IMG/VR virus record: IMGVR_UViG_3300037261_000110
Reading direction: 5' to 3' (one strand)
Source of the DNA: a virus
Taxonomy: Duplodnaviria > Heunggongvirae > Uroviricota > Caudoviricetes
Length of the DNA: 64,000 nucleotides
Position 1 is the first letter of the stretch; every line of letters begins with the position of its first letter. Positions 976 through 48,413 of this stretch are shown piece by piece. The translations under genes and the position numbers were made by a program. Under the pieces are notes generated by a model, which saw only the letters and a program-made list of their open reading frames with translations, searched no databases and was not told the DNA's origin.

Positions 976-3879
976 CTATCTTAGCGGTCTACCGCGAAAA
1001 ATAGCCGTCATGATTGTAGGCTCCTCGAAGCCACGAGCGGCGATCTCCTTTTGAATTTGCTCAAGCCCGCCGATAAGGTTGCGAACTGGCGGTAATCCAA
1101 TATAATTTCGACCAGCCACTATACTTTTCGGTAAGGTACCGTCCTTTGGATTTGGCAAGGTACCTGCCTGAGAATCTGACAAGGTACCTGCTCCCTCAGA
1201 ATCTTTACGGTCCTCAGTCAGCTCTTGAAGCTTCGCCTCAACTTCCTTCCTCGCCTTTTCATTGTAGTTGCGAGAGCCAGCATAGCCGACGCCAGTCAGA
1301 CGCTTAGTACCGTACTTACGCTTCGGACGCGCCCAAGCGAGATATTGCGAAGTCGAGTCGCCCTGATCCTTGTACTTGGTCTCAGGCCAACCAAATATCT
1401 CAGCTTCATATTCTGCTAGCCACCCTGAATTCTCAGGTAGATGGACCAGATGCGCTTCCATCATTGGCGTCACACCATCCATGCGAAACTCTTTCGTAGC
1501 GTTATCAGTTGAGATAGCGATAACTGCACGCGGGCAATGTGGCGAGTTTGGATCGGATTGCTGCTGAATGTACTGAGTACCAGAACCCTTGTCTTCGACG
1601 AGAACACAATCCACATCTCTCAGCTCAGCAAGCTTGTTGAGCTTGTTTGCCATCTCAAAGAACTCCACACGCTTGCGGTAGACCTCGATCAAGTAGTGAT
1701 GGTTATCTTTAGTTTCATCCCAAATCGTTGCAACCGTATAAGCTGCACGCTCGTTGTTCTTGTTGGCAGTGTCGACTGACATAACACGACGCTTCACGTC
1801 TTTGCGCTCAGGACCGATGCGATAGCGTGTACTTGTGAACCATTCACGCTTGATGACGCCACCTTGCTCGTCGATCGGCTTGCCCATATACAAGCTGTTC
1901 CAATCCTTTGCGGATTGCTCAGACTTGATCTGCGCGAGAACATCTTTCGAAAAGAACTCAGGCCAAAGCGGATCACCAAACTGGCGTCCGATTGGATCGG
2001 GAACTGAATCGTCCAAGTAAATTGCCGGCAGGTTAATGATTTCCCAAGGGGCTCCATCGACCATACCTGCCTTGATCATCTTGTTTTCGGCCTCTAGGCG
2101 TCCGCAAAGATCGTCCGAATGCCAGCGCGTCGCCACTATGAACAGTGGAGCTTTGGGAAGCAGACGCGTAAGGTAGTCAGCCTTGAACCAAGCATAGGTT
2201 TTATTGCGGATCGTATCGGATTCCGCATCCTCTCTCGACGCAAATGGATCATCGACGCCAGCAAGATTAGTTCTGAAACCTGCAATTCCTTGTCCGACAC
2301 CACGTGTCAGATAAGCAGAGCCGTTATTTAGCACCCAATATCCGGCGGCGCGCGAAGCTGTGCTTAGCTGTATGTTCGGAAACACTTCAGCATAGCGATC
2401 AGACTCAATTATATCTCTGCACTTCTTACCAAATTCGTTCTCGACGAAGTTCTGGCTGTGTCCGGCTTGAAGATATTTCGTCTTTGGAGCAACACCCATC
2501 TTCCAGGTTGGAAATAAGCGCGAGGCATACGTCGAATTATGGGTTACAATATGTCCACGACCAACAAGAAACAAACCATCTTCGCGTTCGACAGTAATGC
2601 ATTGAGTCGATTGAGTTCCTTCAATCTTCTCGAACGAAATGTAACGTCCGTATTTACCTTCAAACTCAGTTGCACGACAGACCTTGCGCCATAGCTGAAA
2701 CGCACTCTTGAAGTAGAAAGACACGCGCCAATATTCACCGCAGTCTTTTCCGTTCAACATAGCACGTCCAGGGATGATTGAATTCTTCACCCCTAACGAA
2801 AACAGAAGTTCACTCACTGCGTCCCTCAAGCGAGAATTGGTTGAACAAAACGAACACTGTCCTGACGGCGAGACCGTTCCATCACTATCCATCAATCCTT
2901 GTAGAATTGATAAACGCACGTGATAAGAATTTCGAAGATACAGCTCAGGAACATGCTTATTGTTCAAGACACCAAGTGATACCAGATGCTTTCTAATGCC
3001 TAACAAACCAAATGCAGTCTTAGTTGTATGATCAGAAGTATGAACTCCGCACCATTCAATGCGCTCACGTACTTCCGGCTGATCCTTCACATCACATGTT
3101 ATTGTCGGTTGATCGGAATGCCCGTCGCCTAACCAATATCCAAGAACATAAGGATCAAGCGGAATCGTACGAGCCTTATATTCGACTGCTTCAAAATTTG
3201 GAAGTTTTGCACGGCGAGGAGATGTTCGATTGGCAAGATATTCAGTTGGATATGTCTTCCAATAATCACGCTTGCGATCTAATCGAACTGTCCACAAATG
3301 TTCCCCATCAACTAAAACAGCTTGTCCATCATCAGTGTATACACGATAGATTGTACGATTTTCAAACACCGGCGATTTTGCGATTATCTTAGTTGTTGTG
3401 CCGTCTGGTCCGTAAACCTTGTCACCGACTTTCAACTCAGCAATCGTTTTGTAACCGAGCGGAGTTGGAACCTTAGTATCCAGCACCATCGCTTTTGCAT
3501 GTCCTGGTGGCGCCGATATCATTAGACGCGAGTGCATTCCCTGTGACAAATCTGTCAGCTTATTCAGCATGAAGACATGCCAATCAGCCGGTGGTTCATC
3601 CGGAAAAATGTATTCACAATATGCAGTTAGGTCTTTTGGCGCGAGCTGAAGCAGAGCGCTCATGTACTCATTCGAAGTGCTTTCGTAAAGCTCTTCAAGT
3701 GCAATCAGCTGTTGCGCGGGATCGGTAGTACCTGTAAGTTCTATTATGAACTTAGTCTTTGTCGGCGTCAACATCGACTGACGTATCAGTGATGTTTCCA
3801 GCTCCGTCGCCACCATCTTCAGGTTCGTCAGTGACTTCCGTATCTGCTTGCGCGTCTTTTGCGAGATTATTTGCAGCAT
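976..3879 (-). CDS. terL: Terminase large subunit (TerL) interrupted by an in-frame intein. The extein N-terminus may start at the internal Met at 3816 or 3774
   Basis: Motifs: ATRWHSDDLCGRL, DGAPWEIINLP, FIVATRWH. A P-loop-like PPGHAK|S is split by about 319 aa that begin with a Hint block A and end in HN+S. Confidence 0.9.
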   Translation of the reverse strand: MLQIISQKTRKQIRKSLTNLKMVATELETSLIRQSMLTPTKTKFIIELTGTTDPAQQLIALEELYESTSNEYMSALLQLAPKDLTAYCEYIFPDEPPADWHVFMLNKLTDLSQGMHSRLMISAPPGHAKAMVLDTKVPTPLGYKTIAELKVGDKVYGPDGTTTKIIAKSPVFENRTIYRVYTDDGQAVLVDGEHLWTVRLDRKRDYWKTYPTEYLANRTSPRRAKLPNFEAVEYKARTIPLDPYVLGYWLGDGHSDQPTITCDVKDQPEVRERIEWCGVHTSDHTTKTAFGLLGIRKHLVSLGVLNNKHVPELYLRNSYHVRLSILQGLMDSDGTVSPSGQCSFCSTNSRLRDAVSELLFSLGVKNSIIPGRAMLNGKDCGEYWRVSFYFKSAFQLWRKVCRATEFEGKYGRYISFEKIEGTQSTQCITVEREDGLFLVGRGHIVTHNSTYASRLFPTWKMGVAPKTKYLQAGHSQNFVENEFGKKCRDIIESDRYAEVFPNIQLSTASRAAGYWVLNNGSAYLTRGVGQGIAGFRTNLAGVDDPFASREDAESDTIRNKTYAWFKADYLTRLLPKAPLFIVATRWHSDDLCGRLEAENKMIKAGMVDGAPWEIINLPAIYLDDSVPDPIGRQFGDPLWPEFFSKDVLAQIKSEQSAKDWNSLYMGKPIDEQGGVIKREWFTSTRYRIGPERKDVKRRVMSVDTANKNNERAAYTVATIWDETKDNHHYLIEVYRKRVEFFEMANKLNKLAELRDVDCVLVEDKGSGTQYIQQQSDPNSPHCPRAVIAISTDNATKEFRMDGVTPMMEAHLVHLPENSGWLAEYEAEIFGWPETKYKDQGDSTSQYLAWARPKRKYGTKRLTGVGYAGSRNYNEKARKEVEAKLQELTEDRKDSEGAGTLSDSQAGTLPNPKDGTLPKSIVAGRNYIGLPPVRNLIGGLEQIQKEIAARGFEEPTIMTAIFRGRPLR
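2536..3492 (-). mobile_element. Intein with a LAGLIDADG homing endonuclease domain, inserted in the TerL P-loop
   Basis: N-terminal block A-like (A)MVLDTKVPTPLGYKTIAELKVGDKV. Two LAGLIDADG motifs, LGYWLGDGH and LQGLMDSDG. C-terminus GHIVTHN followed by the +1 Ser. Confidence 0.8.
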
Positions 3880-4369
3880 CTTCTTGTTCTTTATCCATTT
3901 TTCGGAATGTATGCACTAGATTTGCGAGGCTCGAAGCAGTAGGTGCCTTAGACTTTTTCGTTTCAGAAATTCCGCCACGATCAACACCATTTTTACCGAG
4001 CTTACCCCACATTCCAAGATATTCGCCCATCAGTTCAATGCAACGAAAAGCTGCGTTATGCTGCTTTTCTAGCTTTGCGTTCTGAGCAAGCAACATAAGT
4101 TGTTCAAGCACCCACGTCTTTGTGAGTTCAAGGTCTTCGTCAGTCTTCGGACCATTCTTGAGAATGTCATCGATCGCCACAATCGATCCTTCAGCCGCCT
4201 CTATCTTCAGTTCGCGTATGCGCGCCTGAATCTCAAGCTGATGAAACATTTTTGAAGCGTTGCCTGGGTTTGGCGAATATCCGGCTTTTTCATATGAATC
4301 AGTAATGCCGCCGCCACGAACTATCAGGCTGCAAAAGTTCTCTCGACGAATATCTTGTAATTTCATCAT
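3752..4369 (-). CDS. terS: Terminase small subunit (TerS). The annotated start is an internal Met; the open frame extends to 4546
   Basis: Terminase_2-like motif ITDSYEKAGYSPNPGNASKM, an acidic C-terminal tail, and it overlaps the terL start. Confidence 0.7.
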   Translation of the reverse strand: MMKLQDIRRENFCSLIVRGGGITDSYEKAGYSPNPGNASKMFHQLEIQARIRELKIEAAEGSIVAIDDILKNGPKTDEDLELTKTWVLEQLMLLAQNAKLEKQHNAAFRCIELMGEYLGMWGKLGKNGVDRGGISETKKSKAPTASSLANLVHTFRKMDKEQEDAANNLAKDAQADTEVTDEPEDGGDGAGNITDTSVDVDADKD

Positions 4370-4511
4370 CTTACTTCTTGTTTGAGCCACATGATCAATG
4401 AAGAGTAACCAACCGACCGACCACTTATCTACCCACGTTTTTATTCTGCGGGTCTTCCTTCGATATTTTCCAATACGTATTTTCTGCTGATGTGCAAGCG
4501 GACTCCCTGGT

Positions 4512-5183
4512 TCACTTGGAAACGGTTTCCTTCCCATCGAATTCAATCACTGTTCTTGGTTGGTGTCCCTGATCGAACACACCATACATCGCAATCAGGC
4601 TGGCTTCCGCCCTGCCGTCGTCCTTTTTACGCTTGAACTGCGCGGCTGCACTTGGAAAGAGCTTCGAGGCACGCGCACGCGACAAATCCTTGTCAGCTCC
4701 GCATCCCATGCGCGCCTTCCAGATTGAAGGACGAACTTTGACAACCCTTAAGCGAAGTGATGCAGCAACGCCAAGAATCGTCCCAAGGCTGGCGCCGAAG
4801 GTGAATCCGTTCACACCACCATCGTGGACCATTCCCCAAACATCCTCTATATAAAGGATATTGCTCGGATGCTTACGCAGCCAACTGACGACCGCGTACG
4901 CATCAACCTCGCGTCGATTGGCAGTAGCTCCGAACACGTGGACTGGCATATCCAGGATGGCTAGCTTGCCCGCATACTCGTCAATCGCGGCTAGAGCGCC
5001 GGAATTGCCTGGATCAACTCCAATCGTCCAGAACCCGCTCCCAAGCCCGGCAAAGTTCTTGTCATCGACGAACCTCGCCTTGCAATCAGCCAGCGTCTTA
5101 CCATCTCCGCCCTCTGGCTCCGCCAGATGGCTTCCCGCTACGCGGGCCGAAACCACGTCGTTCGCACGATCTTCAGTAAACAT
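4512..5183 (-). CDS. RuvC-like Holliday junction resolvase
   Basis: Motifs IGVDPGNSGALAAID and ILYIEDVWG, and a basic C-terminal region. Confidence 0.65.
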   Translation of the reverse strand: MFTEDRANDVVSARVAGSHLAEPEGGDGKTLADCKARFVDDKNFAGLGSGFWTIGVDPGNSGALAAIDEYAGKLAILDMPVHVFGATANRREVDAYAVVSWLRKHPSNILYIEDVWGMVHDGGVNGFTFGASLGTILGVAASLRLRVVKVRPSIWKARMGCGADKDLSRARASKLFPSAAAQFKRKKDDGRAEASLIAMYGVFDQGHQPRTVIEFDGKETVSK

Positions 5184-5667
5184 ACTTCGTACATGCCATA
5201 CAACAACGTAAAAGTAAAGTAAAAGCACACATAGGGTCATTTTGGTTTGGTTCCCCACACCCTTCCGTGCGGGGCGCGAAAAGCTAAAAGAGCAACGTTC
5301 AAAAAGTAGTGTTTTTTAGCAAAAGCTAAGCTTTCTGCGGATGTGTCATAAAATCCACAACTTTTCGACCTACCACTTTTGGCCCCAAAACCCTTTATTT
5401 CTTTAGATAAGATCAATCAAAAGAATAAAAGAATAGTGGGAACCAGGAACACCAAACCAGTCAGGGTAAAACGCTTCGAAAAAATTTCTGTGCCTGAGCT
5501 GGTACAGTGAGACACCGGCGCAGATATTTGTGCCGGGCATTTTCCCCGCGACTGGTTCCGTGTTCCTCATTTACACTACGGTTTTTGAGCTTTCGTTGTA
5601 ATTCCAAGCCTTTTCACAACAATTTAATTGTTGATATTGACTTAATTGACCGTTTGTGCTGTACAGC

Positions 5668-5721
5668 TTGACAGAAGTCACTATTTGTGCTATCAACCGA
5701 CATCGCACAAATAGTGACTTC
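5668..5721 (+). promoter_or_regulatory. Sigma70-like promoter (TTGACA, 17 nt spacer, TATCAA) overlapped by a perfect 17-bp inverted repeat (GAAGTCACTATTTGTGC ... GCACAAATAGTGACTTC). A GAGGAA ribosome-binding site and the ATG at 5734 follow
   Basis: Seen directly; lies in the divergent intergenic region between the minus-strand packaging genes and the plus-strand early genes. Confidence 0.7.
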
Positions 5722-5733
5722 TGAGGAACCAAT

Positions 5734-6417
5734 ATGACTCTTTTCGTTAAAAACTTCGAGGAGCTGCACCAGAAGGTGCTCGACTTCGATCCGATCGTTG
5801 CCAATCGGCGCGGGCGTGTTGCGCTCCGTCTCAAGTTCTTTTGCGAGTTTGGCAACCGTAAAATCAGTGTTGGCGTTTATGCGCTCGCTAATGGAGCAAC
5901 CGAACGCAGGCGCTGTTACAACATCGCTGACGCCTTCAATTACCTCAATAAGTGTGGTGTTGAGCAAGATATACCAAAGGTCGAGCCCGGTCATGCAATT
6001 CAACCAGTCCGCAAAGTCAGGACCGGCAATAACGAGTTTGCCACGTCGGCGGTTGACAGAGCGATCTTGCTCAAGCCAATGCTGGACGCTTGGCACGATG
6101 GCGCACGCCGCCGCAACCCGCGCTTTCGCTACAATGGTGCAATTGAAACTCCTTGGGGAACAATCGATCTCGTTGGCTCTTACGATGGTAGGAAGCCACA
6201 TTTCGAATTTCAAGTGACTCGACAGGATACCTCGAAAAAGCTTCGTTACAGAGAAGACGAGCTGGAAAAGGCGTTCGGTGATCTATTCCGTGGCGCGAAT
6301 GGCGTCGAAGTCGAGACCTGGATTGAGCCGACTGACGATGATGTAAGCACCTATCCGAAGGCGGCGCGTTTTCCAACGATGCGCCCGAGCCGTAGAAGTC
6401 ACGCACATGAAAGCTAA
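5734..6417 (+). CDS. Hypothetical protein; first gene downstream of the operator-controlled promoter
   Basis: 227-aa ORF, RBS GAGGAA, no recognised motifs. Confidence 0.6.
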   Translation: MTLFVKNFEELHQKVLDFDPIVANRRGRVALRLKFFCEFGNRKISVGVYALANGATERRRCYNIADAFNYLNKCGVEQDIPKVEPGHAIQPVRKVRTGNNEFATSAVDRAILLKPMLDAWHDGARRRNPRFRYNGAIETPWGTIDLVGSYDGRKPHFEFQVTRQDTSKKLRYREDELEKAFGDLFRGANGVEVETWIEPTDDDVSTYPKAARFPTMRPSRRSHAHES

Positions 6418-6841
6418 TTGGTACGAACAAGGGCGCGGAGCTGCACCGCTGCCAAATCCGAATCCTTTGCCTTGGCCTTATAGTGAGATGACAACGGAGC
6501 GTGACAACGCCAGTCATGTCTTGAGTCAGCTACAGAAAATGCCGATCCATGAGCTTCAATTTGCCAAAATCTACCTGTTCACCAGTCCCGATCCATGTGA
6601 GGTTGTTCGGCGTCTGATGGATGAAGTTCGTTGGACTAAAGACTTTTCGGAAACGTTCTTTCTGGCTGGTTCGGTTATCTGGAACATCCCGCAGCTGGCT
6701 TTGTATCGTTGGACCGTTCCTCACCCGTTGCCACATAAAAAGCTGCCGGGTGTAGCTGGATTAGTCTTGTCAGACTACGTTCCATACCCATTTTCGATTT
6801 CTGTTGACATTTTTTCGAGTTCGTGCAATTTAACAGGATGA
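6407..6841 (+). CDS. Hypothetical protein
   Basis: 144-aa ORF overlapping the stop of the upstream gene. Confidence 0.4.
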   Translation: MKANWYEQGRGAAPLPNPNPLPWPYSEMTTERDNASHVLSQLQKMPIHELQFAKIYLFTSPDPCEVVRRLMDEVRWTKDFSETFFLAGSVIWNIPQLALYRWTVPHPLPHKKLPGVAGLVLSDYVPYPFSISVDIFSSSCNLTG

Positions 6842-7067
6842 CTGACTATTTCCTCTCACTGCCAAACCGGCTCGCCGAAATCGAGGCTGAGGAGCTAGCG
6901 CCCGATGGAAATCTCACCCCAGGTTTCTATCGGTTCTGCCGCAGCTCCAACGACACGCCGTCAGCGGCTGTGGCTCGCAGTCGTCCTAAGACACGTTCGC
7001 AAAGGCAGCGCTACGCCAAATATATCAGGACGCCGAACACGCTCAATCCGTCAAGGAGCTTCTAGCC

Positions 7068-7328
7068 GTGCCGCGCAAGTTTATGTACGCGGTCCTCGCC
7101 GCGTCGTTCCTGTTCTTGACGATTTCACTCGTGAAATACGTGGGTGTCGAGGAGCGCCTTATTCTCCAAATGCAAAGCGACGCAAGGGACCGCGCAAAGT
7201 CTGACGCTGTGTGGCTCGATCGCATTCGCAAGATGGAATTGAATCAGACCCTGGCGCCGAGCAACCCGGTAATCAAGCCGTGCCCGTTCATCGATCAGCA
7301 ACCTCTAGCCACGGGGTGCAGCAAGTGA
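7068..7328 (+). CDS. Small membrane protein
   Basis: N-terminal TM helix YAVLAASFLFLTISLV. Confidence 0.45.
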   Translation: MPRKFMYAVLAASFLFLTISLVKYVGVEERLILQMQSDARDRAKSDAVWLDRIRKMELNQTLAPSNPVIKPCPFIDQQPLATGCSK

Positions 7329-7564
7329 CAATGCATCTGCGCTTCCGTGTTGCCGTCTGGCAAATCTTGCTCGGACTGTTCGTTCTGATTGGCATCATAA
7401 TGTGGGCAGTGTTGTAATGCTGACACAATTGCAACTCAATATGGTGAAAGAAGCGATCGGCAATGGTCACGATTGGCTGAGCACTTTCGCCTGTATGGAC
7501 AGGAGAGCTGACAGCATGCTTGGCTTCGATCCATATGCACGTGTAATGGTGAAGGTTGTCAACC

Positions 7565-7693
7565 ATGACTCTAAGTCATTTCGAACGGCTGGTGATCGGA
7601 CTCAATATCGTTATCCTCACCGTAGTGATGACGCTCGACTACTACGCCGTAAGCCACCAGCTACAGCTGTTCATGTCCTCACCACTTTTCTGA
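7565..7693 (+). CDS. Small membrane protein (42 aa)
   Basis: RBS GGTGAAGG; single TM helix LVIGLNIVILTVVMTL; lies in a different frame from the 148-aa track ORF. Confidence 0.4.
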   Translation: MTLSHFERLVIGLNIVILTVVMTLDYYAVSHQLQLFMSSPLF

Positions 7694-7855
7694 TTTTGGT
7701 CGGGATCGTTGTCGGCATCGAAACCGGCGTCGTGTGGGGAAGCCAGTGTGGTTTCGGTTCGTTCAATTGTGTCGTTCGCAGCCTTGGCCTCGCGGGAGCT
7801 GACGCCTACTATGCCCAACGCTTTGAGAACCATCATGCTCCGCAATAAGGAACGT

Positions 7856-7975
7856 ATGTCGACAATCCAGAAGCTCACCGTCCTCGGCGGTGTTGCTTTT
7901 GCTTTCCTCTACTGTGCGTTCATCATTTTTGGGATCATGCATGCAACCACGGAGCCACCAATCTACTATGAGTGA
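7856..7975 (+). CDS. Small membrane protein (39 aa)
   Basis: RBS AAGGAA; TM helix LTVLGGVAFAFLYCAFIIFGI. Confidence 0.45.
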   Translation: MSTIQKLTVLGGVAFAFLYCAFIIFGIMHATTEPPIYYE

Positions 7976-8120
7976 ACGCCACAATTACAGGCACTGGACA
8001 CCTGGGATGTTTTGGAGCGCATTGCTACTTATCATCCTTTTAGGTTTGGCAGTGTGGGGAGCGATCGATTATGGACAATCGATCGACTACGCTTTTGGAC
8101 ATCTCTTCACCCATGAGTGA
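7968..8120 (+). CDS. Small membrane protein (50 aa)
   Basis: Start overlaps the upstream stop (ATGAGTGA); TM helix FWSALLLIILLGLAVWGAI. Confidence 0.45.
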   Translation: MSERHNYRHWTPGMFWSALLLIILLGLAVWGAIDYGQSIDYAFGHLFTHE

Positions 8121-8232
8121 GTTTGACTTCTGGACGGGCATGTATTATGTCCTCGCGCTCGGCATAAGCTTTGGCTTGGTGTGCGGCCTCGCATGCGCGT
8201 GGTTTGCCAATAATCGAGGCAAACATGCATAA
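8113..8232 (+). CDS. Small membrane protein (39 aa)
   Basis: The same ATGAGTGA start/stop overlap; TM helix YYVLALGISFGLVCGLACAWF. Confidence 0.45.
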   Translation: MSEFDFWTGMYYVLALGISFGLVCGLACAWFANNRGKHA

Positions 8233-8509
8233 CTGGCGCCGTTGGTATCTCTTCGGACTCTGTATTCTAGGGCTCGTCGGTGTCGAATTCATTCAGTTCA
8301 GTTTCGAGCCGCCGGACAAGCCGCAGGTTAGCAAGGAACACTGCGATCTGCAAGCCAGACAGATTTGCATAGCTAATCTTGATCGGACTGGCAAGGTTGC
8401 CTCTCTCAAAAAGCCGGGAGTGTTCTGTTCGTGCTGGCTGAATGGTAAGGGAATAGAGGACAACATATATTATCTGCAATACGAGCTAGACAGGGCGAAG
8501 AAAAAATGA
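8225..8509 (+). CDS. Membrane-anchored small protein with a Cys-containing ectodomain
   Basis: Start overlaps the upstream stop; TM helix YLFGLCILGLVGV. Confidence 0.45.
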   Translation: MHNWRRWYLFGLCILGLVGVEFIQFSFEPPDKPQVSKEHCDLQARQICIANLDRTGKVASLKKPGVFCSCWLNGKGIEDNIYYLQYELDRAKKK

Positions 8510-8655
8510 CCCTCGAACAGCACTCTGAAGTTCTACGTCGTCGCTTGGAGGCTTTAGCCAAGGCTTTGACTGATGCACATCGCGACGGCTACGAAGTTAA
8601 ATATACCGTCGGGTATATTTATGGGGAGACAATGCGTTCGAAATTAAAAAGCTGA
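8506..8655 (+). CDS. Small hypothetical protein (49 aa)
   Basis: ATGA overlap with the upstream stop. Confidence 0.35.
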   Translation: MTLEQHSEVLRRRLEALAKALTDAHRDGYEVKYTVGYIYGETMRSKLKS

Positions 8656-8680
8656 AGCTGACAAAGGACTTTACACACAA

Positions 8681-8800
8681 ATGAAACATGAAATATTGAA
8701 GCTGCTGAAGCAGAAGATGTCAGTCAAAGAAATCGCTCAGATACTTGGTTTGTCTGAGTGGACCGTCGTCGCTTACATTGGAGTCAGGAAGCAATGTTAG
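8681..8800 (+). CDS. Miniature LuxR/GerE-type HTH protein (39 aa)
   Basis: LKLLKQKMSVKEIAQILGLSEWTVVAYIGVRK matches the LuxR C-terminal HTH consensus. Confidence 0.5.
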   Translation: MKHEILKLLKQKMSVKEIAQILGLSEWTVVAYIGVRKQC

Positions 8801-8882
8801 CTCGTCTTGGTTATCCCTTGGTTGGTATGTTTGGCATCGCCTGCGGAGTCCAGCCTCAGCACCATGCTTCAGTCGAGCCTGA

Positions 8883-9209
8883 TTGTATCCAGGCTCGCTG
8901 GTCTTCGTTTGTGTGCTCCTGATGCCACTCACAACGAACGACCCTGAGCCGCTGCACCCACGGGCTTCGGACCTCACCACGCGCGCAGATTGGGAGGAGC
9001 GCGCGACACAGGCGACGCCCAAGGCTGAGCTTGAGCGTCAGATCATGAGTTGGAACGTCCCGAAGAACGAACGCGAGTGGTGGGCGTTGCACGAAATCGA
9101 GCGCTTGCGTGAGATAGTTCGTCTTAAACGCCCGCATCCTGTTTACGGCTTGGCGATACTCATGGTCGTGATCGCCGCGCTTATCCTCTTTCGATTCTGG
9201 CAGGGCTAA
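8883..9209 (+). CDS. Hypothetical protein with a C-terminal TM anchor
   Basis: C-terminal LAILMVVIAALILFRFW. Confidence 0.4.
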   Translation: MYPGSLVFVCVLLMPLTTNDPEPLHPRASDLTTRADWEERATQATPKAELERQIMSWNVPKNEREWWALHEIERLREIVRLKRPHPVYGLAILMVVIAALILFRFWQG

Positions 9210-9210
9210 A

Positions 9211-9441
9211 ATGATTTTCGCCGATTACCCAACAGTTTCACATTCGCTCGAACGTACGTCGCCGAAGGGTCCAGGGATGCTCTTCATCGGCACCTGTCGG
9301 TTGTGTGGAAAAACAGGGTTGACTTTCGAAGATATGAAGCGCGAGATATGCCCGAACCCGCGCGGCGTCACCGCAGACGAAAACCTGCTCAACGCCGTGA
9401 AGGGTTTCGGCGAACCCGACGTGTCAAACAAACGGAGTTAG
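9211..9441 (+). CDS. Hypothetical Cys-containing protein
   Basis: 76-aa ORF with an ATGA-type junction. Confidence 0.4.
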   Translation: MIFADYPTVSHSLERTSPKGPGMLFIGTCRLCGKTGLTFEDMKREICPNPRGVTADENLLNAVKGFGEPDVSNKRS

Positions 9442-9709
9442 AACCCGAATGGACGCTGAACTAAAGAAAAAGGTTGAGACCTTGTTGAGGAAGGCTGCGG
9501 ATGCTACCAATGCCGCAGAAGCCATGAGCTATTCGCAGGCAGCGTGCAACTCGGCAAACGCCTTGCGCGTGCTGGCAGAGATAGAAACTCGTTACGACAA
9601 CAAAGTAGAGGGCTAACCCGCCCCCCAGCGCCCCAGCCCAAGCTACGATGTTGTCGGACGCTCCGCTGCCGGCCTCGGCAGCGGAGCACTCTTTTCCGGG
9701 AGGAATTCA

Positions 9710-9856
9710 ATGGTTAATTATATTGAAACATCGTGCTTTCAGTTTCCCTGGTGGGTTTATTTGATTTGGATCGGCTGCGCTTTCGCCGGTGCTCTGTTAT
9801 TTTCATGCGTGCTTCAGCCGGCGTATAAGTGGTACAAAACGTCGCGGGCACAATGA
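9710..9856 (+). CDS. Small membrane protein (48 aa)
   Basis: RBS GGGAGGAA; TM helix WWVYLIWIGCAFAGALLF. Confidence 0.4.
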   Translation: MVNYIETSCFQFPWWVYLIWIGCAFAGALLFSCVLQPAYKWYKTSRAQ

Positions 9857-9886
9857 TACCCCCCTAAAATTGGGGGGAGGAATAAA

Positions 9887-10030
9887 ATGATTCGTTTATT
9901 GCGTTGGTATAGCTACAAGCGGCTCGATCGTATATGCTCCCGCCGGCTGGTCGCCATGGGATGTTTCCAGGCTGATTGGCGGGCTTACAATGCCATCATA
10001 GAAAAGGTGGGCTTTCCACATGACGACTGA
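9887..10030 (+). CDS. Small protein, MxRLLRW family copy 1 (47 aa)
   Basis: RBS GGGGGGAGG; paralogous to 10251..10400 (MIRLLRWYSYKRLDR...LVAMG vs MVRLLRWRSYKRFDR...LIAMG). Confidence 0.5.
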   Translation: MIRLLRWYSYKRLDRICSRRLVAMGCFQADWRAYNAIIEKVGFPHDD

Positions 10031-10232
10031 TGACAAAAAAGACACGCAGATCAGTGAACTGCGTAGCGAGGTAGCTGATTTGCAGAAATCGCGCGGGTTG
10101 AGAAATTTCGCCCTTGCAAAACTTCTCTCGCGCTGCCATCAACAACTCTTACTAAGATCACGGGTGTTTTGGAACGTGCTCGGGCTTGCCGGTGCCGTTG
10201 CCATCGGCATCGCATGGGCGGTTTATCACTGA
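10020..10232 (+). CDS. Small protein with an N-terminal coiled coil and a C-terminal TM anchor
   Basis: 70-aa ORF; VLGLAGAVAIGIAWAVY. Confidence 0.45.
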   Translation: MTTDDKKDTQISELRSEVADLQKSRGLRNFALAKLLSRCHQQLLLRSRVFWNVLGLAGAVAIGIAWAVYH

Positions 10233-10250
10233 ACTCCGGGGGAGAATGTT

Positions 10251-10400
10251 ATGGTTCGTTTGTTACGCTGGCGCAGCTATAAGCGGTTCGATCGCATGTT
10301 TGCCAGCCGGCTCATAGCCATGGGCTATCTGTTGGCGGAATGGAAATGTTTCGAGGAGATTGGAAAAGTCTTCACAAATCGGCATAATCATCGCCCGTAA
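10251..10400 (+). CDS. Small protein, MxRLLRW family copy 2 (49 aa)
   Basis: RBS GGGGGAGAA; paralogous to 9887..10030. Confidence 0.5.
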   Translation: MVRLLRWRSYKRFDRMFASRLIAMGYLLAEWKCFEEIGKVFTNRHNHRP

Positions 10401-10679
10401 GCTCTACGGCGGTGATCTCGGACGGTTTGCAGAAGTTCTCGCGAGCTGCCTCGCCTACGCTGTCATAGCCCTGCTGGTCTGTCCACTTGATCACAGCTTG
10501 GAGCACGTCAGGCGCGGTCACGACGTGCTGCGGAGCTTCGCCGCAGTAGATTTGATATCGACGCATAGGTTGCTCCGGGGAAACCGCAGGCTCGGCTATC
10601 TCGGAAAAGGAGTCGAACCGAGTGGGCGCCCGCAGAGCATCCCTAAAACCGAACCTGCAACGAACGACATAGCCTGTAA

Positions 10680-11075
10680 CTAGCTCCTTGTCAAGGCCCG
10701 AAATAGTTCTCTCATGGAGTCTTCGGTAAAATCCGGACGGCGGCGTGCTTCGTTGCGCTCGCGAAGGACGCGCCGCATGAGTATGTTGACGTGATTGCTG
10801 AGATTGGTGGCTATCTTGGGAATTGCTGTGTCCTTAACCGTATGATCAGGAGGGATAGCCAGGGCGGCGATGCCGGCGGCGACCACATTGAGGGCATTGG
10901 CGATGTCGACGCGAGTGGAACCGCGCTCGTGTTCGTCGTGGACCCAACTCTCCGCTGTCTCGACGATGCCGGTGGCGAGTAAGCGTCCGAGAGCGCGTTT
11001 GCTAGCGTGTTCGTGAAGCAATAAGTCGTCGATCATCGCTTGGTCGACAAAGCCGGGGGTATGCGCGTCGGTCAT
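10680..11075 (-). CDS. Hypothetical protein in a minus-strand islet
   Basis: 131-aa ORF with a strong RBS (GAGGAGGAAAC ATG). Confidence 0.5.
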   Translation of the reverse strand: MTDAHTPGFVDQAMIDDLLLHEHASKRALGRLLATGIVETAESWVHDEHERGSTRVDIANALNVVAAGIAALAIPPDHTVKDTAIPKIATNLSNHVNILMRRVLRERNEARRRPDFTEDSMRELFRALTRS

Positions 11076-11280
11076 GTTTCCTCCTCTCGTCTTGCATCGC
11101 GTGTAGGATCGCGACCTGTGCCTGGGGTGCTTCTGACTCCGACCATGCTAGCGCTTGTCGGAGGATTGCCAAAGCCTTTTCTGGATCGTTTTCTTCGAGC
11201 ACATCAGTGAGCGCTCGGCGAGTCCAACTGCCTTCGGATACGTCCGCCATGATTTTCTGGATAGCTGCCCGCGTGTTCAT
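11002..11280 (-). CDS. Hypothetical protein; overlaps the downstream minus-strand gene by 74 nt
   Basis: 92-aa ORF. Confidence 0.4.
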   Translation of the reverse strand: MNTRAAIQKIMADVSEGSWTRRALTDVLEENDPEKALAILRQALAWSESEAPQAQVAILHAMQDERRKHDRRAYPRLCRPSDDRRLIASRTR

Positions 11281-11396
11281 ATATTGGCTTGTAGCATATT
11301 ATCCCTCGCGAGATTGGAATGACTTGGTTTATGGTAAATGCCGAGTTGGGACGAATTGTCTTAATTCCGACACAGTTTTGCTGCATAGGTTAAAGG

Positions 11397-12242
11397 ATGA
11401 AACGCCGATTTTACGAAGAGAAGTGGCTACCGCTAAGCATTGCTAGCGAAGGACGTGTGAAAGCCTTGAATAAATTGGCGACGGAAGGTTGGCACGTTGT
11501 CAATTTCGTCCCGCACGAAAATGGCTTTCTCTATCTTTCTCTGCAAAGAGAATCCAACATGACCTCGCTCGCTGATACCCTTCAGGCTGTTTACCGTCAG
11601 CGTGACCATGGCATCAAGCCGCGTGTCCATGGTAACGGCTTCATTCAGCTCGATATGGCGCGTGACGTTCGCCTTCATGTGTGGGGTGATCCGCGCATTC
11701 CACGCCAGAAAACCTTCTGTCAAATTCACGACCACATCTTTTCGTTTGACTCCGAGCTGATCGTCGGACAGCTGATCAATATCTGGTACGACACGGAGTT
11801 GGTTATAGGCGGTCACGGCGCCTACAAAATTTACGAGCCGTTCCCGCGCGGCGGACAGGATACTGGTTTGAAAGACACGGGACATACGGTTGATATTTTT
11901 CAAAAGCCACCGGTTCTTTTAAGGACCATGCATCCTTTTGCTGACCACTACCATATGAAATGGGGTGAGTTTCACGAAACGATTGCGAGCGGTCCTGCTG
12001 CGACCATCATGCACAAGAATGGTCCGTCACAGCTCGAAACATATACCAGCCTCGGAATCGATCTGAACAACATAAACCCTGATGGCAGTGACTATCACCT
12101 GATGGATGCGCTCGACACCCGCAAGCCGCGTGTGCTTGTCCCTGTCGGGCAAGAGCCGGATAACGAGTTCCGCCGTGACATGTTCGACGACAGGTTATTG
12201 TGGACAATCATTTTTGATACGTTGTGGGAGTACAGTCGATGA
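11397..12242 (+). CDS. Hypothetical protein with His-rich motifs (HVWGDP, IHDHIFSFDS, HPFADHYH); possible metal-binding enzyme
   Basis: 281-aa ORF. Confidence 0.5.
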   Translation: MKRRFYEEKWLPLSIASEGRVKALNKLATEGWHVVNFVPHENGFLYLSLQRESNMTSLADTLQAVYRQRDHGIKPRVHGNGFIQLDMARDVRLHVWGDPRIPRQKTFCQIHDHIFSFDSELIVGQLINIWYDTELVIGGHGAYKIYEPFPRGGQDTGLKDTGHTVDIFQKPPVLLRTMHPFADHYHMKWGEFHETIASGPAATIMHKNGPSQLETYTSLGIDLNNINPDGSDYHLMDALDTRKPRVLVPVGQEPDNEFRRDMFDDRLLWTIIFDTLWEYSR

Positions 12243-31448: not shown

Positions 31449-31582
31449 TCGAATTCATCGGTGAAGCTGTAGTCATCGTCATCCTGGTAGTCGGGACGCT
31501 GAAAGCTCTACAGTGGATATCTCACAAACAAACGACTACCTATATCGTCGAAAATGAAAAGGACAAGGACGAACATGCCTAG
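31445..31582 (+). CDS. Small single-pass membrane protein (45 aa) immediately upstream of the SPFH gene
   Basis: ATGA overlap with the upstream stop; TM helix AVVIVILVVGTLKAL. Confidence 0.4.
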   Translation: MIEFIGEAVVIVILVVGTLKALQWISHKQTTTYIVENEKDKDEHA

Positions 31583-32501
31583 ATCAAATTTCGGTGACAG
31601 TGAAAGGGGCACACGCAGCCGTTCTCTTTCATTCGGTGGCATCGGTCTGATCGTTGTCGTCGTGCTCGGACTCATAGTAGCCTGGGATGGCTATTACACG
31701 GTCGATGCCACGCAGGCGGCGATCGTCAAGCAATGGGGCGCCCTTTCTGACGTGACCTTCGAGGGGCTGCATTTCAAGATACCGTTTGCGCAGACCGTGG
31801 AGTATATCGATCTGAAGCAACAGACCGATCTGTACAATCCGGTTGAGGGCTATACAGCTGATCAGCAAATCGCCAATATGTCGGTTGGCGTCCAGTGGCA
31901 CGTCAATCGAGATCGCGCCAGTCTGGAAGCGCTCTATCGGCAATACACTGACGTGCCCGGCGTCAAGGCGAAGCTGATCGACTCAAACCTGCCGACGTTC
32001 CTGAAGAATGTCTTCGGGCAGTACACGGCGGTCAAAGCCATTCAAGATCGTGCCAAGTTGAACTCTGATATCACGACGGCGATCGTCGCCTCTATCGGCA
32101 AAGACTCGCCGATACAGGTAGAGCACGTCAACGTACAAGATATCAAGTACGATCCGACTTATGAACGCGCCATTACAGAGCGCAATCAAGCCGAAGTCGC
32201 GGTTCGTACCAAGGAACAGGACTTGGCGAAGGCCAAGGTCGAAGCCGATATTGCTGTGGCGCAGGCGACAGGTCAAGCAAATTCTGCACGCGCTAAGGCG
32301 GAAGGCGATCGTGATGCCGCTATCGCCGCCGGCAACGGCAAGGCCAGCGCTATCAAGGCAGTCTCTGACGCGCTCACGCAGAATCCGTCCTATCTGGAAC
32401 TATCGAGAATTGAGAAGTGGTCCGGTGGGGTGCCCCAGCAAATGATCCCCGGTGCCACGGTGCCGTTCATCAATCTCGGACAACCGGTCGCGAGCAAGTA
32501 A
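31575..32501 (+). CDS. SPFH/band-7 (HflK/HflC/prohibitin-like) membrane protein
   Basis: N-terminal TM helix, SPFH core (VKQWGALSDVTFEGLHFKIPF...) and a long Ala/Gln-rich coiled coil. Confidence 0.7.
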   Translation: MPRSNFGDSERGTRSRSLSFGGIGLIVVVVLGLIVAWDGYYTVDATQAAIVKQWGALSDVTFEGLHFKIPFAQTVEYIDLKQQTDLYNPVEGYTADQQIANMSVGVQWHVNRDRASLEALYRQYTDVPGVKAKLIDSNLPTFLKNVFGQYTAVKAIQDRAKLNSDITTAIVASIGKDSPIQVEHVNVQDIKYDPTYERAITERNQAEVAVRTKEQDLAKAKVEADIAVAQATGQANSARAKAEGDRDAAIAAGNGKASAIKAVSDALTQNPSYLELSRIEKWSGGVPQQMIPGATVPFINLGQPVASK

Positions 32502-43665: not shown

Positions 43666-44256
43666 TCATCCCAAATTCCTCACTAACTTCGTAACACCTT
43701 TTGACGGTTCAATGTAGTGTTGTGTCGTCTCAATGCTCGCGTGTCCCGCGAGTTCTTGAACGTCTCGAAGCGAGCACTTGTACATGTTCACCGACCGCGC
43801 CAGAGCCGTGATCATAGAACGGCGTCCAGAGTGGCTGGAAGCCCCCTGGAAGCCAGCGCTGCGGTAGAGCTGCCAGAGATAGACCGCGATGTGGTTAGGC
43901 GTCATGGCGCCCCCCTTGACGGCGCGGATGACCCTGGTCTCCAAATAGGTAATTTTCTTACCTTGACTCAGTTCGCGGAGTGCCTGATAAAGTTCAGCAT
44001 GGATCGGAATTTGCCGTCGTTTGTCACCCTTTCCGATCACATCAAAATAGTCGGTATGGAGGCGTCCCTGTGCGTCGCACAAATTGGACCAGTCCAAATC
44101 TGCAACCTCGGATGCTCGCAAGCCGGCCCTATATGTCAGGAGAATCATCACTTTATCCCGCAGGGGATGACGCTCGTTCGCGGCAAATTTTAGAAGCTCT
44201 CGAAGTTGAGGCTCCGTCAGGATTTGCGCCTGTTTCCGCCGACGCCGTAAACGCAC
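43666..44256 (-). CDS. Minimal tyrosine recombinase (catalytic domain only, 196 aa)
   Basis: Catalytic residues R (YRAGLRASE), K (GKGDKRR), HxxR (HSGRR) and H...Y (GHASIETTQHY). Confidence 0.75.
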   Translation of the reverse strand: MRLRRRRKQAQILTEPQLRELLKFAANERHPLRDKVMILLTYRAGLRASEVADLDWSNLCDAQGRLHTDYFDVIGKGDKRRQIPIHAELYQALRELSQGKKITYLETRVIRAVKGGAMTPNHIAVYLWQLYRSAGFQGASSHSGRRSMITALARSVNMYKCSLRDVQELAGHASIETTQHYIEPSKGVTKLVRNLG

Positions 44257-45322: not shown

Positions 45323-45946
45323 TCACTCGCCAGGACCTTTCTTGAGAACGTCTTCCGGCTTGGTGACTTTGAACTGGTATCCGCCGCTTCCGTCGTCGGG
45401 AACATCGCCCTGAGCGCCAGATGATGTGTCTTTGTCTCCTTCGAGACCCGGCTTACCTTTGCCGCCTTTTCCCTTGCCGCCTTTGCCACCGGCGCCGCCG
45501 ATGTCGTCGCCTTGTCCGTTTTTCTCGATGTCGACGACATCTCCGCTCTCGACTTGTTTCTTTGCGGCAGCGAATTTCTTAGCAGCTTCTTTCGAGTAGG
45601 GCAAGGCGTAATTCAGCGGTGCCAAATCCGAGTCCGAATAGACGAAATTGCTAAGCCAGGGAACGACTTGACCCTTCCTGTCAGGGTACAGCCATAGGTA
45701 AATATGACCGTTAGTGTTGATCCCTGGATTGATAATTTCGACTCCTTTCAGCCGACCTTTTATGAAATTCGCTTCCGCAGGCCAGCCTTTGTAACTCTCG
45801 AAGGAGTAGCTGATCGACGTGATGACGACGATTGCCAGCGCTGTCAGCACGAATTTGAACGGGCGCGTCGCCCGGTGATTGATGAAAGCTAGGGCAACGA
45901 GCGCCACTAGCAAGACCGTGTACAGACCTAAGAAAAAGTTGGACAA
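45323..45946 (-). CDS. Two-TM membrane protein with a Gly/Lys-rich C-terminal region
   Basis: TM helices LGLYTVLLVALVALAFI and FVLTALAIVVITSI; GGAGGKGGKGKGGKGKPG. Confidence 0.55.
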   Translation of the reverse strand: MSNFFLGLYTVLLVALVALAFINHRATRPFKFVLTALAIVVITSISYSFESYKGWPAEANFIKGRLKGVEIINPGINTNGHIYLWLYPDRKGQVVPWLSNFVYSDSDLAPLNYALPYSKEAAKKFAAAKKQVESGDVVDIEKNGQGDDIGGAGGKGGKGKGGKGKPGLEGDKDTSSGAQGDVPDDGSGGYQFKVTKPEDVLKKGPGE

Positions 45947-45958
45947 GATTGGCGCTCC

Positions 45959-46669
45959 TTATGGGTGGCTGTAGGGCGACGCTACCGGCATGGTGCTCAT
46001 GCCAGGAATGCCGCTGCCGGAAGAATCGCCGCTTAGCTCGGTCACGCGCGAGGCTACCAGCTCTTCATCGCTCTGTTCGATATTGAGGATGGTTCCCTGT
46101 GCATCCACGTCAAACATGACGACCGGAACCTCTTCCCAAACTCTGTGGAAAGTGGCGACGCGGGAATCAGCCACGACATACGTCGGATTGACCTTTTCGA
46201 CCGAAGTCTTCACGTCGAAGGTTTTCTCGGCGCCATGTGGCATTCCGACGTTTTCGATGCGACAGGCGAACAGATGGATACTCACCTTGTAGGTGCCGGG
46301 AACGATTCCGCGCATCGAATAGAACTCTTTGTGATCGTGCGAGACCACAAGGGTTCCATCCGGGAGCTTGGTCGAGCTGTTTACGTCGCCGCGATCGTCA
46401 AACTCCAAGTGAGCCAAGCCGTTGACTTTCTGCTTGAAGTAGGTGACGGCGCCAGTCGGGTCCTTCACCCAAAGGTCTACGTCACAGTTGTCAACTGCCC
46501 AACTGGCAGAGACTACGAGCTGAGCGTTACGCGTGGCGTCGGCGTCACTTTTCGACGGGTTCGTGTCGACAATGGCAAGCAGGAACAGCGCCGCCAACGT
46601 GGTTATGAAGGCGTTGGCGAAGTCGATGTAGCTGAGCTGCCACGACGAATCTGTGGTGAACGGGTTCAT
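45959..46669 (-). CDS. MotB/ExbD/TolR-like membrane protein with a non-OmpA periplasmic domain
   Basis: SWQLSYIDFANAFITTLAALFLLAIV aligns with the MotB consensus [22 protein letters not shown], including the conserved Asp; start overlaps the MotA-like gene stop. Confidence 0.65.
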   Translation of the reverse strand: MNPFTTDSSWQLSYIDFANAFITTLAALFLLAIVDTNPSKSDADATRNAQLVVSASWAVDNCDVDLWVKDPTGAVTYFKQKVNGLAHLEFDDRGDVNSSTKLPDGTLVVSHDHKEFYSMRGIVPGTYKVSIHLFACRIENVGMPHGAEKTFDVKTSVEKVNPTYVVADSRVATFHRVWEEVPVVMFDVDAQGTILNIEQSDEELVASRVTELSGDSSGSGIPGMSTMPVASPYSHP

Positions 46670-47166
46670 TATTCGTCATCCATGACGCCCGAGAGCGCGC
46701 TGTACCAGAAGAGCTGGTTGCTGAGAAAGAGAGCGGACGCAACCCCGAGACCGGTTGTCGAGAACACGATGCCGAGCGGCGGAAGCAGGTGCGGAGCCAA
46801 TGTCGCCATCGTGAAGCTAGCAAGGTTGCTAGTTCCGCCGAATGAGCTGTAAAATAGGAACATGCTGCCGCAAACGGTTCCGAGAATGCCCCACAGGAAC
46901 ACCTGAGTGGCATAGAACCAAACACCAGCTAGCCACTTGCGGACGCGGCGCTTGTGCCATTCTTTCGGATCGGTAGCGTGCTTCCAGGCGACGTAGCCGA
47001 TCGTTAAGTTTGCCGTGACTGCTATGGCTGCGATGATCTGCGTGATGTGGGTCACGTCAAACGAATAGATCAGCGTCGCAATGCCTTTTGAGGACAAGTA
47101 GAAGACGATAGTTCCGACAAGCAGTGTGATGACGAACCACACATAGAGTGGGGTAAATTTTCCCAT
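46669..47166 (-). CDS. Minimal MotA/TolQ/ExbB-family channel protein (4 TM, 165 aa)
   Basis: Family signature LWGILGTVCGSMFLF (GLLGTVxGMI) and TTGLGVASALFLS (TTaxGLxvAIP). Confidence 0.65.
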   Translation of the reverse strand: MGKFTPLYVWFVITLLVGTIVFYLSSKGIATLIYSFDVTHITQIIAAIAVTANLTIGYVAWKHATDPKEWHKRRVRKWLAGVWFYATQVFLWGILGTVCGSMFLFYSSFGGTSNLASFTMATLAPHLLPPLGIVFSTTGLGVASALFLSNQLFWYSALSGVMDDE

Positions 47167-47171
47167 GGTAG

Positions 47172-48248: not shown

Positions 48249-48413
48249 AATTTGTGGCCTTTCCGGCTTTTTGGATAATGCTCGCATTAACCTAAATTGT
48301 CAATCGAAAAATAATGTGAACGAACTCGGGAATTTTTGGCGGTGTACGATCTCGCTTGACAAATCGAAGAAATTGTAGCATGAATCTGGCGAAAGATAGG
48401 AAAACAGGTAGAG

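Follow-up and report, generated by a model that had tools for sequence, protein, structure and literature searches.

The small early proteins of phage T4 such as Imm, Sp and those of the RI/RIII type are approximately 80-100 amino acids (aa) long, are directed to the inner membrane or periplasm, are not needed for basic replication, are poorly conserved, and act on DNA entry or on the timing of lysis. In this study, positions 7068-8509 of a 64,000-nucleotide (nt) virus sequence (IMG/VR record IMGVR_UViG_3300037261_000110; this whole 64-kb stretch is called the window) were analyzed. The region is a block of seven abutting genes, A86, B28, C143, E39, F50, G39 and H94 (products of 28-143 aa), each encoding a protein with a single transmembrane (TM) helix, and a further open reading frame (ORF), D42, is a possible eighth gene. 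This block, hereafter the cassette, resembles the T-even exclusion and envelope proteins in that small, predicted membrane-targeted products are encoded in a cluster of small accessory genes. It differs from them in consisting of seven contiguous abutting TM genes and in lacking any sequence similarity, as the PHROGs collection, which contains these families, gave no match at E ≤1, and no cassette ORF matched the T4 Imm or Sp families in PHROGs or Pfam. The lysis genes of phages lambda (S, Rz and Rz1) and T4 (T and RI) also encode small single-pass or N-in, C-out bitopic proteins, with possible dual starts and a nested ORF (Rz1 in Rz). In the present case, by contrast, there is no adjacent endolysin, lipoprotein partner or family match, and the operon adjoins packaging genes.

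Surveys of phage small proteins (the review PMC11323111 and the small-gene catalogue cited there) describe products of <100 aa that are unannotated and often missed by gene callers. Compared with such general families, the cassette is distinguished by its contiguous seven-gene array, and its A86 and H94 families have so far been found in two phage lineages. The Sgl lysis proteins of single-stranded RNA phages (PMC7693330) are likewise short single-TM ORFans, sometimes embedded in an alternative frame and subject to fast, lineage-specific turnover. The cassette shares short single-TM ORFans with them, but it belongs to a double-stranded DNA phage, and neither a lytic function nor a de novo origin is claimed for it. 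Arrays of hydrophobic ORFans in phage accessory regions were already expected and nothing is overturned here.

The seven TM-bearing ORFs lie on the same strand and tile all 1442 nt of the region, with every gap or overlap being 10 nt or less. They are listed below together with D42, where KD19 is the mean Kyte-Doolittle hydropathy of a 19-residue window, SD is a Shine-Dalgarno sequence and the coding score was obtained with a codon model trained on 54 confident genes of the window (6800-9700 being left out of training).

7068-7328, + strand: A86, an 86-aa bitopic protein (GTG start; SD AAGGAG 9 nt upstream; KD19 1.99)
7331-7417, + strand: B28, a 28-aa single-TM mini-protein (KD19 2.43; coding score 0.23 per codon)
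7417-7848, + strand: C143, a 143-aa protein (its ATG overlaps the B28 stop codon in TAATG; an alternative ATG at 7516, with SD AGGAG, gives 110 aa)
7565-7693, + strand: D42, a 42-aa TM ORF nested in C143 in another frame (the weakest TM segment of the set by a Hessa-type sum, +3.3)
7856-7975, + strand: E39, a 39-aa single-TM mini-protein (SD TAAGGA 4 nt upstream; KD19 2.43; coding score 0.22 per codon)
7968-8120, + strand: F50, a 50-aa single-TM mini-protein (KD19 2.38; coding score -0.06 per codon, other frames being worse)
8113-8232, + strand: G39, a 39-aa single-TM mini-protein (KD19 2.17; coding score 0.03 per codon, tied by one antisense frame)
8225-8509, + strand: H94, a 94-aa bitopic protein (ATG within an 8-nt overlap with the G39 stop; SD GAGG upstream; coding score 0.23 per codon)

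An earlier reading of this DNA (the original prediction) had described consecutive single-TM ORFs of 39-94 aa. Six of them are present as described; the 42-aa ORF lies inside the 143-aa frame and is not consecutive with the others, and the 28-aa ORF at 7331-7417 had been missed.

The array of seven TM ORFs is real, non-random, coding-like and partly conserved. All eight ORFs contain a single 19-residue window with a mean hydropathy of 1.94-2.43, and a KD19 of at least 1.9 was reached by only 1.8% of 339 off-frame ORFs (28-100 aa) and by 5 of the 54 confident window genes. With a simple version of the Hessa-type insertion sum, B28, C143, E39, F50 and G39 gave values ≤0, while A86 (+1.4), H94 (+2.7) and D42 were marginal. 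Across 300 dinucleotide-preserving shuffles, no TM-only chain went beyond 2 ORFs and 567 nt, no TM-ORF chain was present in the reverse complement of the region, and no chain of more than 2 was found in any other 1442-nt stretch on either strand of the window. Trp/Tyr residues flank the helices of the cassette proteins, and lysine and arginine (K/R) are found on the N-terminal rather than the C-terminal side of the helix (3 v 0 in B28, 5 v 0 in C143, 2 v 0 in E39 and 3 v 0 in F50), which under the positive-inside rule predicts an N-in, C-out topology. Region 6400-9200 shows 99.96-100% DNA identity in six retrieved metagenome contigs (ENA, JGI and Logan), and since near-identical DNA is thus present in at least six independent assemblies, the frame structure of the cassette is not an assembly error. 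There is also no sign of recent import, as the GC content of the cassette (0.48-0.55) matches that of the genome (0.516). No structured RNA or tRNA was found in the region.

The chosen frame had the best coding score of the six for all members except G39, and the minus-strand frames, which were inspected for antisense genes, all scored lower, bar the one tying the low-scoring G39. When ranked against the off-frame null, B28, E39 and H94 fell in its top 0.3%, C143 at 2.7%, A86 at 4.7%, G39 at 6.8% and F50 at 17%. The score discriminates small genes poorly here, since A86 and M76 (a gene farther along the same operon), both of which are conserved, score no better than G39. As had been predicted, the small hydrophobic ORFs are gene-like, judging from their exact tiling, best-frame coding (G39 tied), N-side K/R enrichment in 5 of the 7 and the conservation of two of them in the sister phage described below.

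The strongest alternative to this view of the locus is that only A86, C143, E39 and H94 are genes, with B28, D42, F50 and G39 being chance ORFs in a spacer or leader. The four ORFs have no homologues, the sister phage has no equivalent of them, stretch 7976-8224 is left uncalled in some pipelines, and the F50 and G39 scores lie within the off-frame null (17% and 7% of which is as good) with no SD. Removing them, however, would leave gene-free gaps of 249 nt and 88 nt in an operon whose other junctions do not exceed 25 nt, and these "spacers" would have to hold exactly abutting TM-grade ORFs with Trp/Tyr flanks and N-side K/R, such hydropathy being rare among off-frame ORFs and chaining beyond 2 being seen in 0 of the 300 shuffles. 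In addition, B28 stands at the very top of the null, and the two conserved genes mentioned above do no better than G39. This explanation is regarded as improbable.

No part of phage genomes is annotated less well than the small membrane proteins, of which the known examples control superinfection, DNA entry and lysis timing. The expected under-annotation was found at this locus of seven abutting TM genes, one of which was never called by any pipeline and two of which were called inconsistently. An exact look-up among ~15 billion proteins revealed that B28, D42 and the short forms of F50 and G39 have never been called, and the gene calls for the longest contigs also lack the longer forms, F59 and G53. 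One public call set gives products of 110, 46, 59 and 53 aa; the other gives 143 and 39 aa and leaves F and G uncalled. Four genes have alternative candidate start codons in the sequence: C (7417 or 7516), E (7835 or 7856, the former ATG giving 46 aa), F (7941 or 7968, the former ATG giving 59 aa) and G (8071 or 8113, the former ATG, with GGAG 9 nt upstream, giving 53 aa).

The consecutive genes of the cassette are joined by touching or overlapping stop and start codons, three of the junctions being 8-nt overlaps. These are:

7968-7975, + strand: ATGAGTGA, 8-nt stop/start overlap of E39 and F50
8113-8120, + strand: ATGAGTGA, 8-nt stop/start overlap of F50 and G39
at 8225, + strand: ATGCATAA, stop/start overlap of G39 and H94, the third 8-nt overlap

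The identity of the first two overlaps, noted previously, can be read directly from the sequence. Its recurrence, which had been highlighted, is by itself not significant, as the 4 copies of ATGAGTGA in the window compare with an expectation of 2.1, as many as 4 occur in 16 of 100 shuffles, and there is no DNA duplication around the two copies. In order, the cassette junctions measure +2, +2, -1, +7, -8, -8, -8 and -4 nt and appear compatible with translational coupling, as originally proposed. An SD of at least 4 nt precedes ~41% of the genes of this phage vs 17% of random ATGs; within the cassette it is present at A86 (AAGGAG), E39 (TAAGGA) and H94 (GAGG) and absent at C143, F50, G39 and the following gene, I49, whose starts touch the preceding stop. 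Touching stops and starts, with downstream starts that often have no SD, form the pattern of a translationally coupled operon, and because the codons touch or overlap and several starts lack an SD, coupling by termination-reinitiation is suggested. The genes are probably coupled in this manner from a few SD-bearing entries (A86, E39 and H94).

The sole diverged relative found was Logan contig SRR21686420_9822 (L007), the large terminase (TerL) of which is 76% identical to that of the window. The other similarities detected between the two phages are:

resolvase (p248): 66% identity, E 2e-68
p227: 42% identity, E 7e-51
p144: 27% identity, E 8e-5
A86: 42% identity over 52 aa, E 1e-10
H94: 40% identity over 93 aa, E 4e-21
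M76: 54% identity, E 3e-19

A86 and its L007 homologue share LxLQMQxDAxxRxxxDAxWxxRI directly after the TM helix, which in A86 spans approximately residues 6-27 at the N-terminus and is followed by a helical C-terminal domain of ~60 aa. In H94, the N-terminal TM helix is rich in Gly and includes a conserved Glu; the C-terminal domain that follows, of ~65 aa, has four invariant Cys and carries CSCWLxGKGxEDN as a motif. Shared with the L007 homologue are W4/W7/Y8, three Gly and one Glu in the helix, the four Cys and the motif. Since the four Cys and CSCWLxGKGxEDN are kept in both homologues, H94 fits a disulfide-bonded periplasmic domain, which probably carries two disulfides. A SAR domain was also considered for H94 and dropped, as its TM helix is only ~20-25% Gly/Ala/Ser. 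Two new small families are thereby defined: A86, and H94 with its predicted Cys4 periplasmic domain.

The interval between the A86 and H94 genes is ~150 bp in L007 vs ~900 bp (B28 to G39) in the window. In L007 it holds a single uncalled 45-aa TM ORF (6165-6302, - strand) with a coding score of 0.20 per codon under the window model, which is as high as that of confirmed genes; E39 resembles this ORF weakly (z 4.7). The L007 run consists of six genes including the 45-aa ORF, five of which have a TM or TM-like N-terminal signal (KD19 ≥1.77), and the sixth has only a weaker, signal-peptide-like N-terminus. On the 3' side of the H94 homologue lie genes for proteins of 167, 106 and 60 aa, the second with a signal-like N-terminus and the third with a TM segment. 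The 167-aa protein (5352-5855, - strand) combines a twin-arginine-like N-terminus (NRRSFFGLL) with a tail-collar domain (PF07484), and it is unusual in being apparently exported and encoded in a non-structural operon. Comparison of synteny indicates that both phages keep a run of envelope-targeted genes at this place and have only two of them in common. This layout of conserved flanks and a variable core could serve in searches for comparable accessory slots among related phages.

Other relatives were sought widely. H94 had one true relative among 1.84 billion cluster representatives. Pattern scans with p227, H94 and A86 and alignments revealed no further relatives in IMG/VR, JGI metagenomes and GTDB genomes, and a DNA search with positions 6000-10000 gave no match among isolated phages. 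A search of 5.8 billion proteins with a 570-aa query concatenated from the small proteins was uninformative, as it did not match even the identical H94; TM-rich words apparently saturate the 8000-candidate list of this word-indexed search, which makes its negatives for TM-rich queries unreliable. The TerL relatives P0002, P0005, P0007 and P0008 were rejected as comparators (contigs too short or non-syntenic), as was Microcystis phage Mwe-JY26 (different layout). Erythrobacter phage XM05 and Roseobacter phage DSS3P8 are more distant and have the same arrangement of terminase and divergent small genes with only 1-2 TM proteins among 12-18 small genes, which indicates that the concentration of TM genes is specific to this sub-lineage.

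With regard to the origin of the mini-proteins, F50 and G39 share MSE...WT(P)GM[FY][WY], and B28 and F50 share ILLGL. Paralogy was considered and is not established: composition-preserving shuffles, by which TM segments look more significant than they are, gave z values of only 3-5, and there are no DNA repeats. A bolder and rather doubtful idea is that the A86-H94 interval is a hot spot of birth and replacement of single-pass membrane genes, including overprinting of D42 and C143 in either direction. If true, membrane mini-proteins used in conflict between phage and host, or between phages, would here have arisen de novo or by overprinting in a double-stranded DNA phage.

The interpretation that we favour, with a probability of roughly 55%, is that the cassette is an accessory inner-membrane module of co-transcribed, coupled single-TM genes that modifies the host envelope. 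The block would be co-transcribed within a 16-gene operon, its products would insert into the host inner membrane, and A86 and H94 would expose small periplasmic domains (N-in, C-out). The interior of the block would be lineage-specific, between two conserved flanking genes, and the module as a whole would modify the envelope of the infected cell. By analogy, superinfection exclusion or the blocking of DNA entry by rival phages would be the most likely role, with modulation of the membrane or of lysis timing as the next possibility. Arguments for an accessory module of the inner membrane and periplasm are its position, the predicted targeting and the rapid turnover around two conserved anchors; with regard to position, the cassette lies in an operon of small accessory genes, one of them for a helix-turn-helix (HTH) mini-protein; this operon opens the non-structural arm and may be driven by a host-type promoter.

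Several points weigh against this interpretation. Five of the seven genes (B28, C143, E39, F50 and G39) have no homologue anywhere searchable, F50 and G39 combine weak coding scores with the absence of an SD at their short starts, and gene callers disagree on starts and sometimes skip F and G. The ORFs were read as genes from their sequence and from comparison with a single diverged relative, structure predictions are of low confidence (pLDDT of 56 for the AlphaFold2 model of H94, built from a 2-sequence alignment, and 47 for C143), and the functional assignment is one of analogy. Searches of Pfam, PHROGs, PADLOC and PDB sequences gave no meaningful match for any member.

The cassette might instead be lysis machinery, with A86 as an i-spanin-like protein, H94 as an RI-like periplasmic antiholin and the mini-proteins as holins or pinholins, of which the dual starts E46/E39, F59/F50 and G53/G39 would give holin and antiholin isoforms. 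A holin/antiholin role was among those originally suggested, and the size, the single TM helices and the N-in/C-out layout would fit it; starting from the upstream in-frame ATGs adds a charged stretch at the N-terminus, as in dual-start holins, the nesting of D42 in C143 recalls Rz1 inside Rz, and the phage encodes rIIA and rIIB. The family searches do not bear this out, as none of the 8 ORFs matched a holin family of Pfam or PHROGs at E ≤1, and no significant antiholin or spanin match was obtained. F50 gave a faint match (E 0.061), limited to the TM segment, to phrog_1152 "Rz-like spanin", and A86 has an i-spanin-like layout but an ectodomain of ~60 aa, compared with ~100 aa for the periplasmic coiled coil of i-spanins, and no family match. 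There would be no o-spanin, as the lipobox [LVIMF][ASTVIGL][GAS]C is absent from every candidate protein; LTAC (7508), which alone matches strictly in the + frames, falls in the soluble N-terminal part of C143 and not after a signal peptide. No endolysin or muramidase was found in the operon (5734-9616) or among the 45 other proteins scanned in the 64-kb window. The rest of the operon consists of small non-structural genes, including the 39-aa HTH protein. Lysis genes do not usually lie where this operon does, pointing away from the packaging genes and heading the replication/early arm. Judged from the 64-kb window, the cassette is not a canonical lysis cassette, and a lysis function of the kind outlined above seems unlikely. 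Two further groups of small membrane proteins were rejected. The Hli/Scp proteins and small photosystem subunits, considered as the nearest TerL is that of a Microcystis phage, gave no Pfam match at E ≤1, and no ExxNGRxAMxGF-like motif is present. For type I toxins (Hok/Gef, Ldr, TisB-like), there was no Pfam or PADLOC match and no Rfam antitoxin RNA in 5000-11500, and the ORFs lie in an operon.

Within the accessory module proposed here, the relation of C143 to the nested D42 requires separate consideration. The long frame of 148 codons had been judged less plausible than the small TM ORFs. This is not supported for most of its length: from the ATG at 7417 it gives a 143-aa protein that has its own TM helix and scores positively as coding sequence in both terminal thirds (0.16 per codon at 7417-7563 and 0.11 at 7693-7848, in the top 1-2% of the null), where all other frames are negative. 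C143 has a soluble N-terminal part, a charged linker and a TM helix at approximately residues 83-107, preceded by RLLRRK; 2/3 of its Cys are in the C-terminal tail. The AlphaFold2 model, predicted from the single sequence at low confidence, places a helix at 82-106 and leaves the linker disordered. No homologue was found besides C143 itself.

Codon-position composition flips between ~7565 and 7655. The D42 frame (7565-7690) has a GC content of 0.67 at third codon positions and a T content of 0.52 at second positions, like the other TM genes of the cassette, whereas in the C143 frame (7564-7692) the GC content at third positions is 0.28 and the T content at third positions is 0.51, a value reached in only 0.45% of 43-codon windows of the training genes. 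In the overlap the two frames are nearly level in codon score. That D42 is open decides nothing, because off-frame stretches of 43 codons are often free of stops (12-18%). No canonical start codon for the C-terminal TM segment lies beyond 7549, so its translation must pass through the D42 region. From these patterns the simplest model, and a likely one, is that C143 is one protein whose linker is encoded opposite the nested gene D42. C143 (or its 110-aa form, C110) is probably translated and for D42 the odds appear even; it is possible that C143 is the only gene here and D42 is not one. It is most improbable that ribosomes on D42 slip -1 at CUU-UUC-UGA (7685-7693) into the C143 frame, yielding, besides or instead of C143, a hairpin protein of ~93 aa with two TM helices, as this pure sequence-based speculation, prompted by the shift of the coding signature from the D42 to the C143 frame at ~7655-7670, the U-run immediately 5' of the D42 stop and the C-terminal TM segment having no start of its own, offers neither a canonical X_XXY_YYZ slippery heptamer nor a downstream stimulatory structure and leaves the coding signal in the N-terminal third of C143 unexplained.

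The window originates from a phage genome, as had been recognized, since it encodes terminase, rIIA/rIIB, a T5 A1-like protein and PolA. The genome of this uncultured phage is ~150 kb in size, and the H94 protein was found on at least 22 contigs, the longest of 152,899 bp. SRR21686420, SRR7151716 and ERZ27254089 are among the samples in which this lineage occurs. By TerL (45-49% identity), the closest isolates are Microcystis phage Mwe-JY26 and ~130-150-kb phages of Ruegeria, Erythrobacter, Rhodobacter and Sphingobium, the hosts of all of which are Gram-negative (Alphaproteobacteria and Microcystis). The cassette is located inside an operon of 16 small genes (5734-9616) that is divergent from the resolvase, small terminase (TerS) and TerL genes. 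The surrounding features are:

976-3879, - strand: large terminase TerL with a LAGLIDADG intein
3752-4546, - strand: small terminase TerS
4512-5258, - strand: RuvC-like resolvase
5668-5723, + strand: head of the operon with a promoter-like site TTGACA-17-TATCAA, read from the sequence, 10 nt 5' of the first gene (start 5734)
8506-8655, + strand: I49, a 49-aa soluble protein (ATGA overlap with H94; coding score 0.17 per codon; KD19 -0.32)
8681-8800, + strand: a 39-aa ORF, barely more than an HTH (HTH_Tnp_ISL3, E 3e-7; GerE, E 3e-6), in the same operon just 3' of the cassette
8922-9209, + strand: L95, a 95-aa protein with a C-terminal TM helix (KD19 2.53 at residues 74-92; 5 K/R on the N-side vs 0 on the C-side)
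9211-9441, + strand: M76, matching L007 at 4597-4794 (- strand), with a conserved CxxC...C, small-zinc-ribbon-like (codon score near zero)
9660-9697, + strand: an intrinsic-terminator-like hairpin (12-bp stem with 10 G-C pairs, hairpin 9660-9687, followed by a T-run)
10020-10232, + strand: a 70-aa ORF with a C-terminal hydrophobic helix (KD19 1.82)

The promoter-like site lies in an intergenic region of 476 bp 5' of the operon start, and the operon ends after the gene N55 (9616), before the terminator-like hairpin; these two elements, at 5668 and 9660, bound the operon. A perfect 19-bp inverted repeat, CAGAAGTCACTATTTGTGC ... GCACAAATAGTGACTTCTG, with a 14-nt loop, occupies 5668-5723 and overlaps the promoter-like site. 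It folds as a hairpin (-30.2 kcal/mol, z -6.2), occurs once in the window and could be an operator palindrome or a hairpin of the 5' untranslated region. An early region, as had been suggested, is plausible in view of the small-gene operon, its divergence from the terminase genes and the TTGACA-17-TATCAA site upstream. I49 is the first gene 3' of the cassette without a TM helix. Membrane targeting nevertheless reaches past 7068-8509, as L95 and the 70-aa ORF also have hydrophobic helices. The 39-aa HTH ORF may be a mini transcription regulator. Farther along the window rIIA, rIIB, a helicase, the T5 A1-like protein, DNA polymerase I and a RecE-like nuclease are encoded, and a search for tRNAs in the window found none.

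As for TerL, the window protein has 967 aa as the listed ORF (932 and 945 aa in public calls), with the LAGLIDADG-type intein at approximately residues 320-370. The TerL of L007 has 562 aa and no intein, and Hint or LAGLIDADG domains are present in many TerL relatives.

Three other loci of the window were recorded. Four consecutive genes on the - strand at 45323-48287 encode proteins of 207, 236, 165 and 371 aa, each with a TM-grade segment, the last being a trypsin-like serine protease; this second membrane-protein cluster is located directly upstream of, and divergent from, rIIA/rIIB. A 196-aa ORF (43666-44256, - strand) matches the tyrosine integrases of phrog_216 (E 1.5e-34) over their C-terminal part only and appears to be a short or truncated recombinase in an otherwise lytic-looking genome. 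Finally, an SPFH/Band-7 membrane protein (PF01145, E 7e-28) with a TM-grade N-terminal segment is encoded at 31554-32501 on the + strand.

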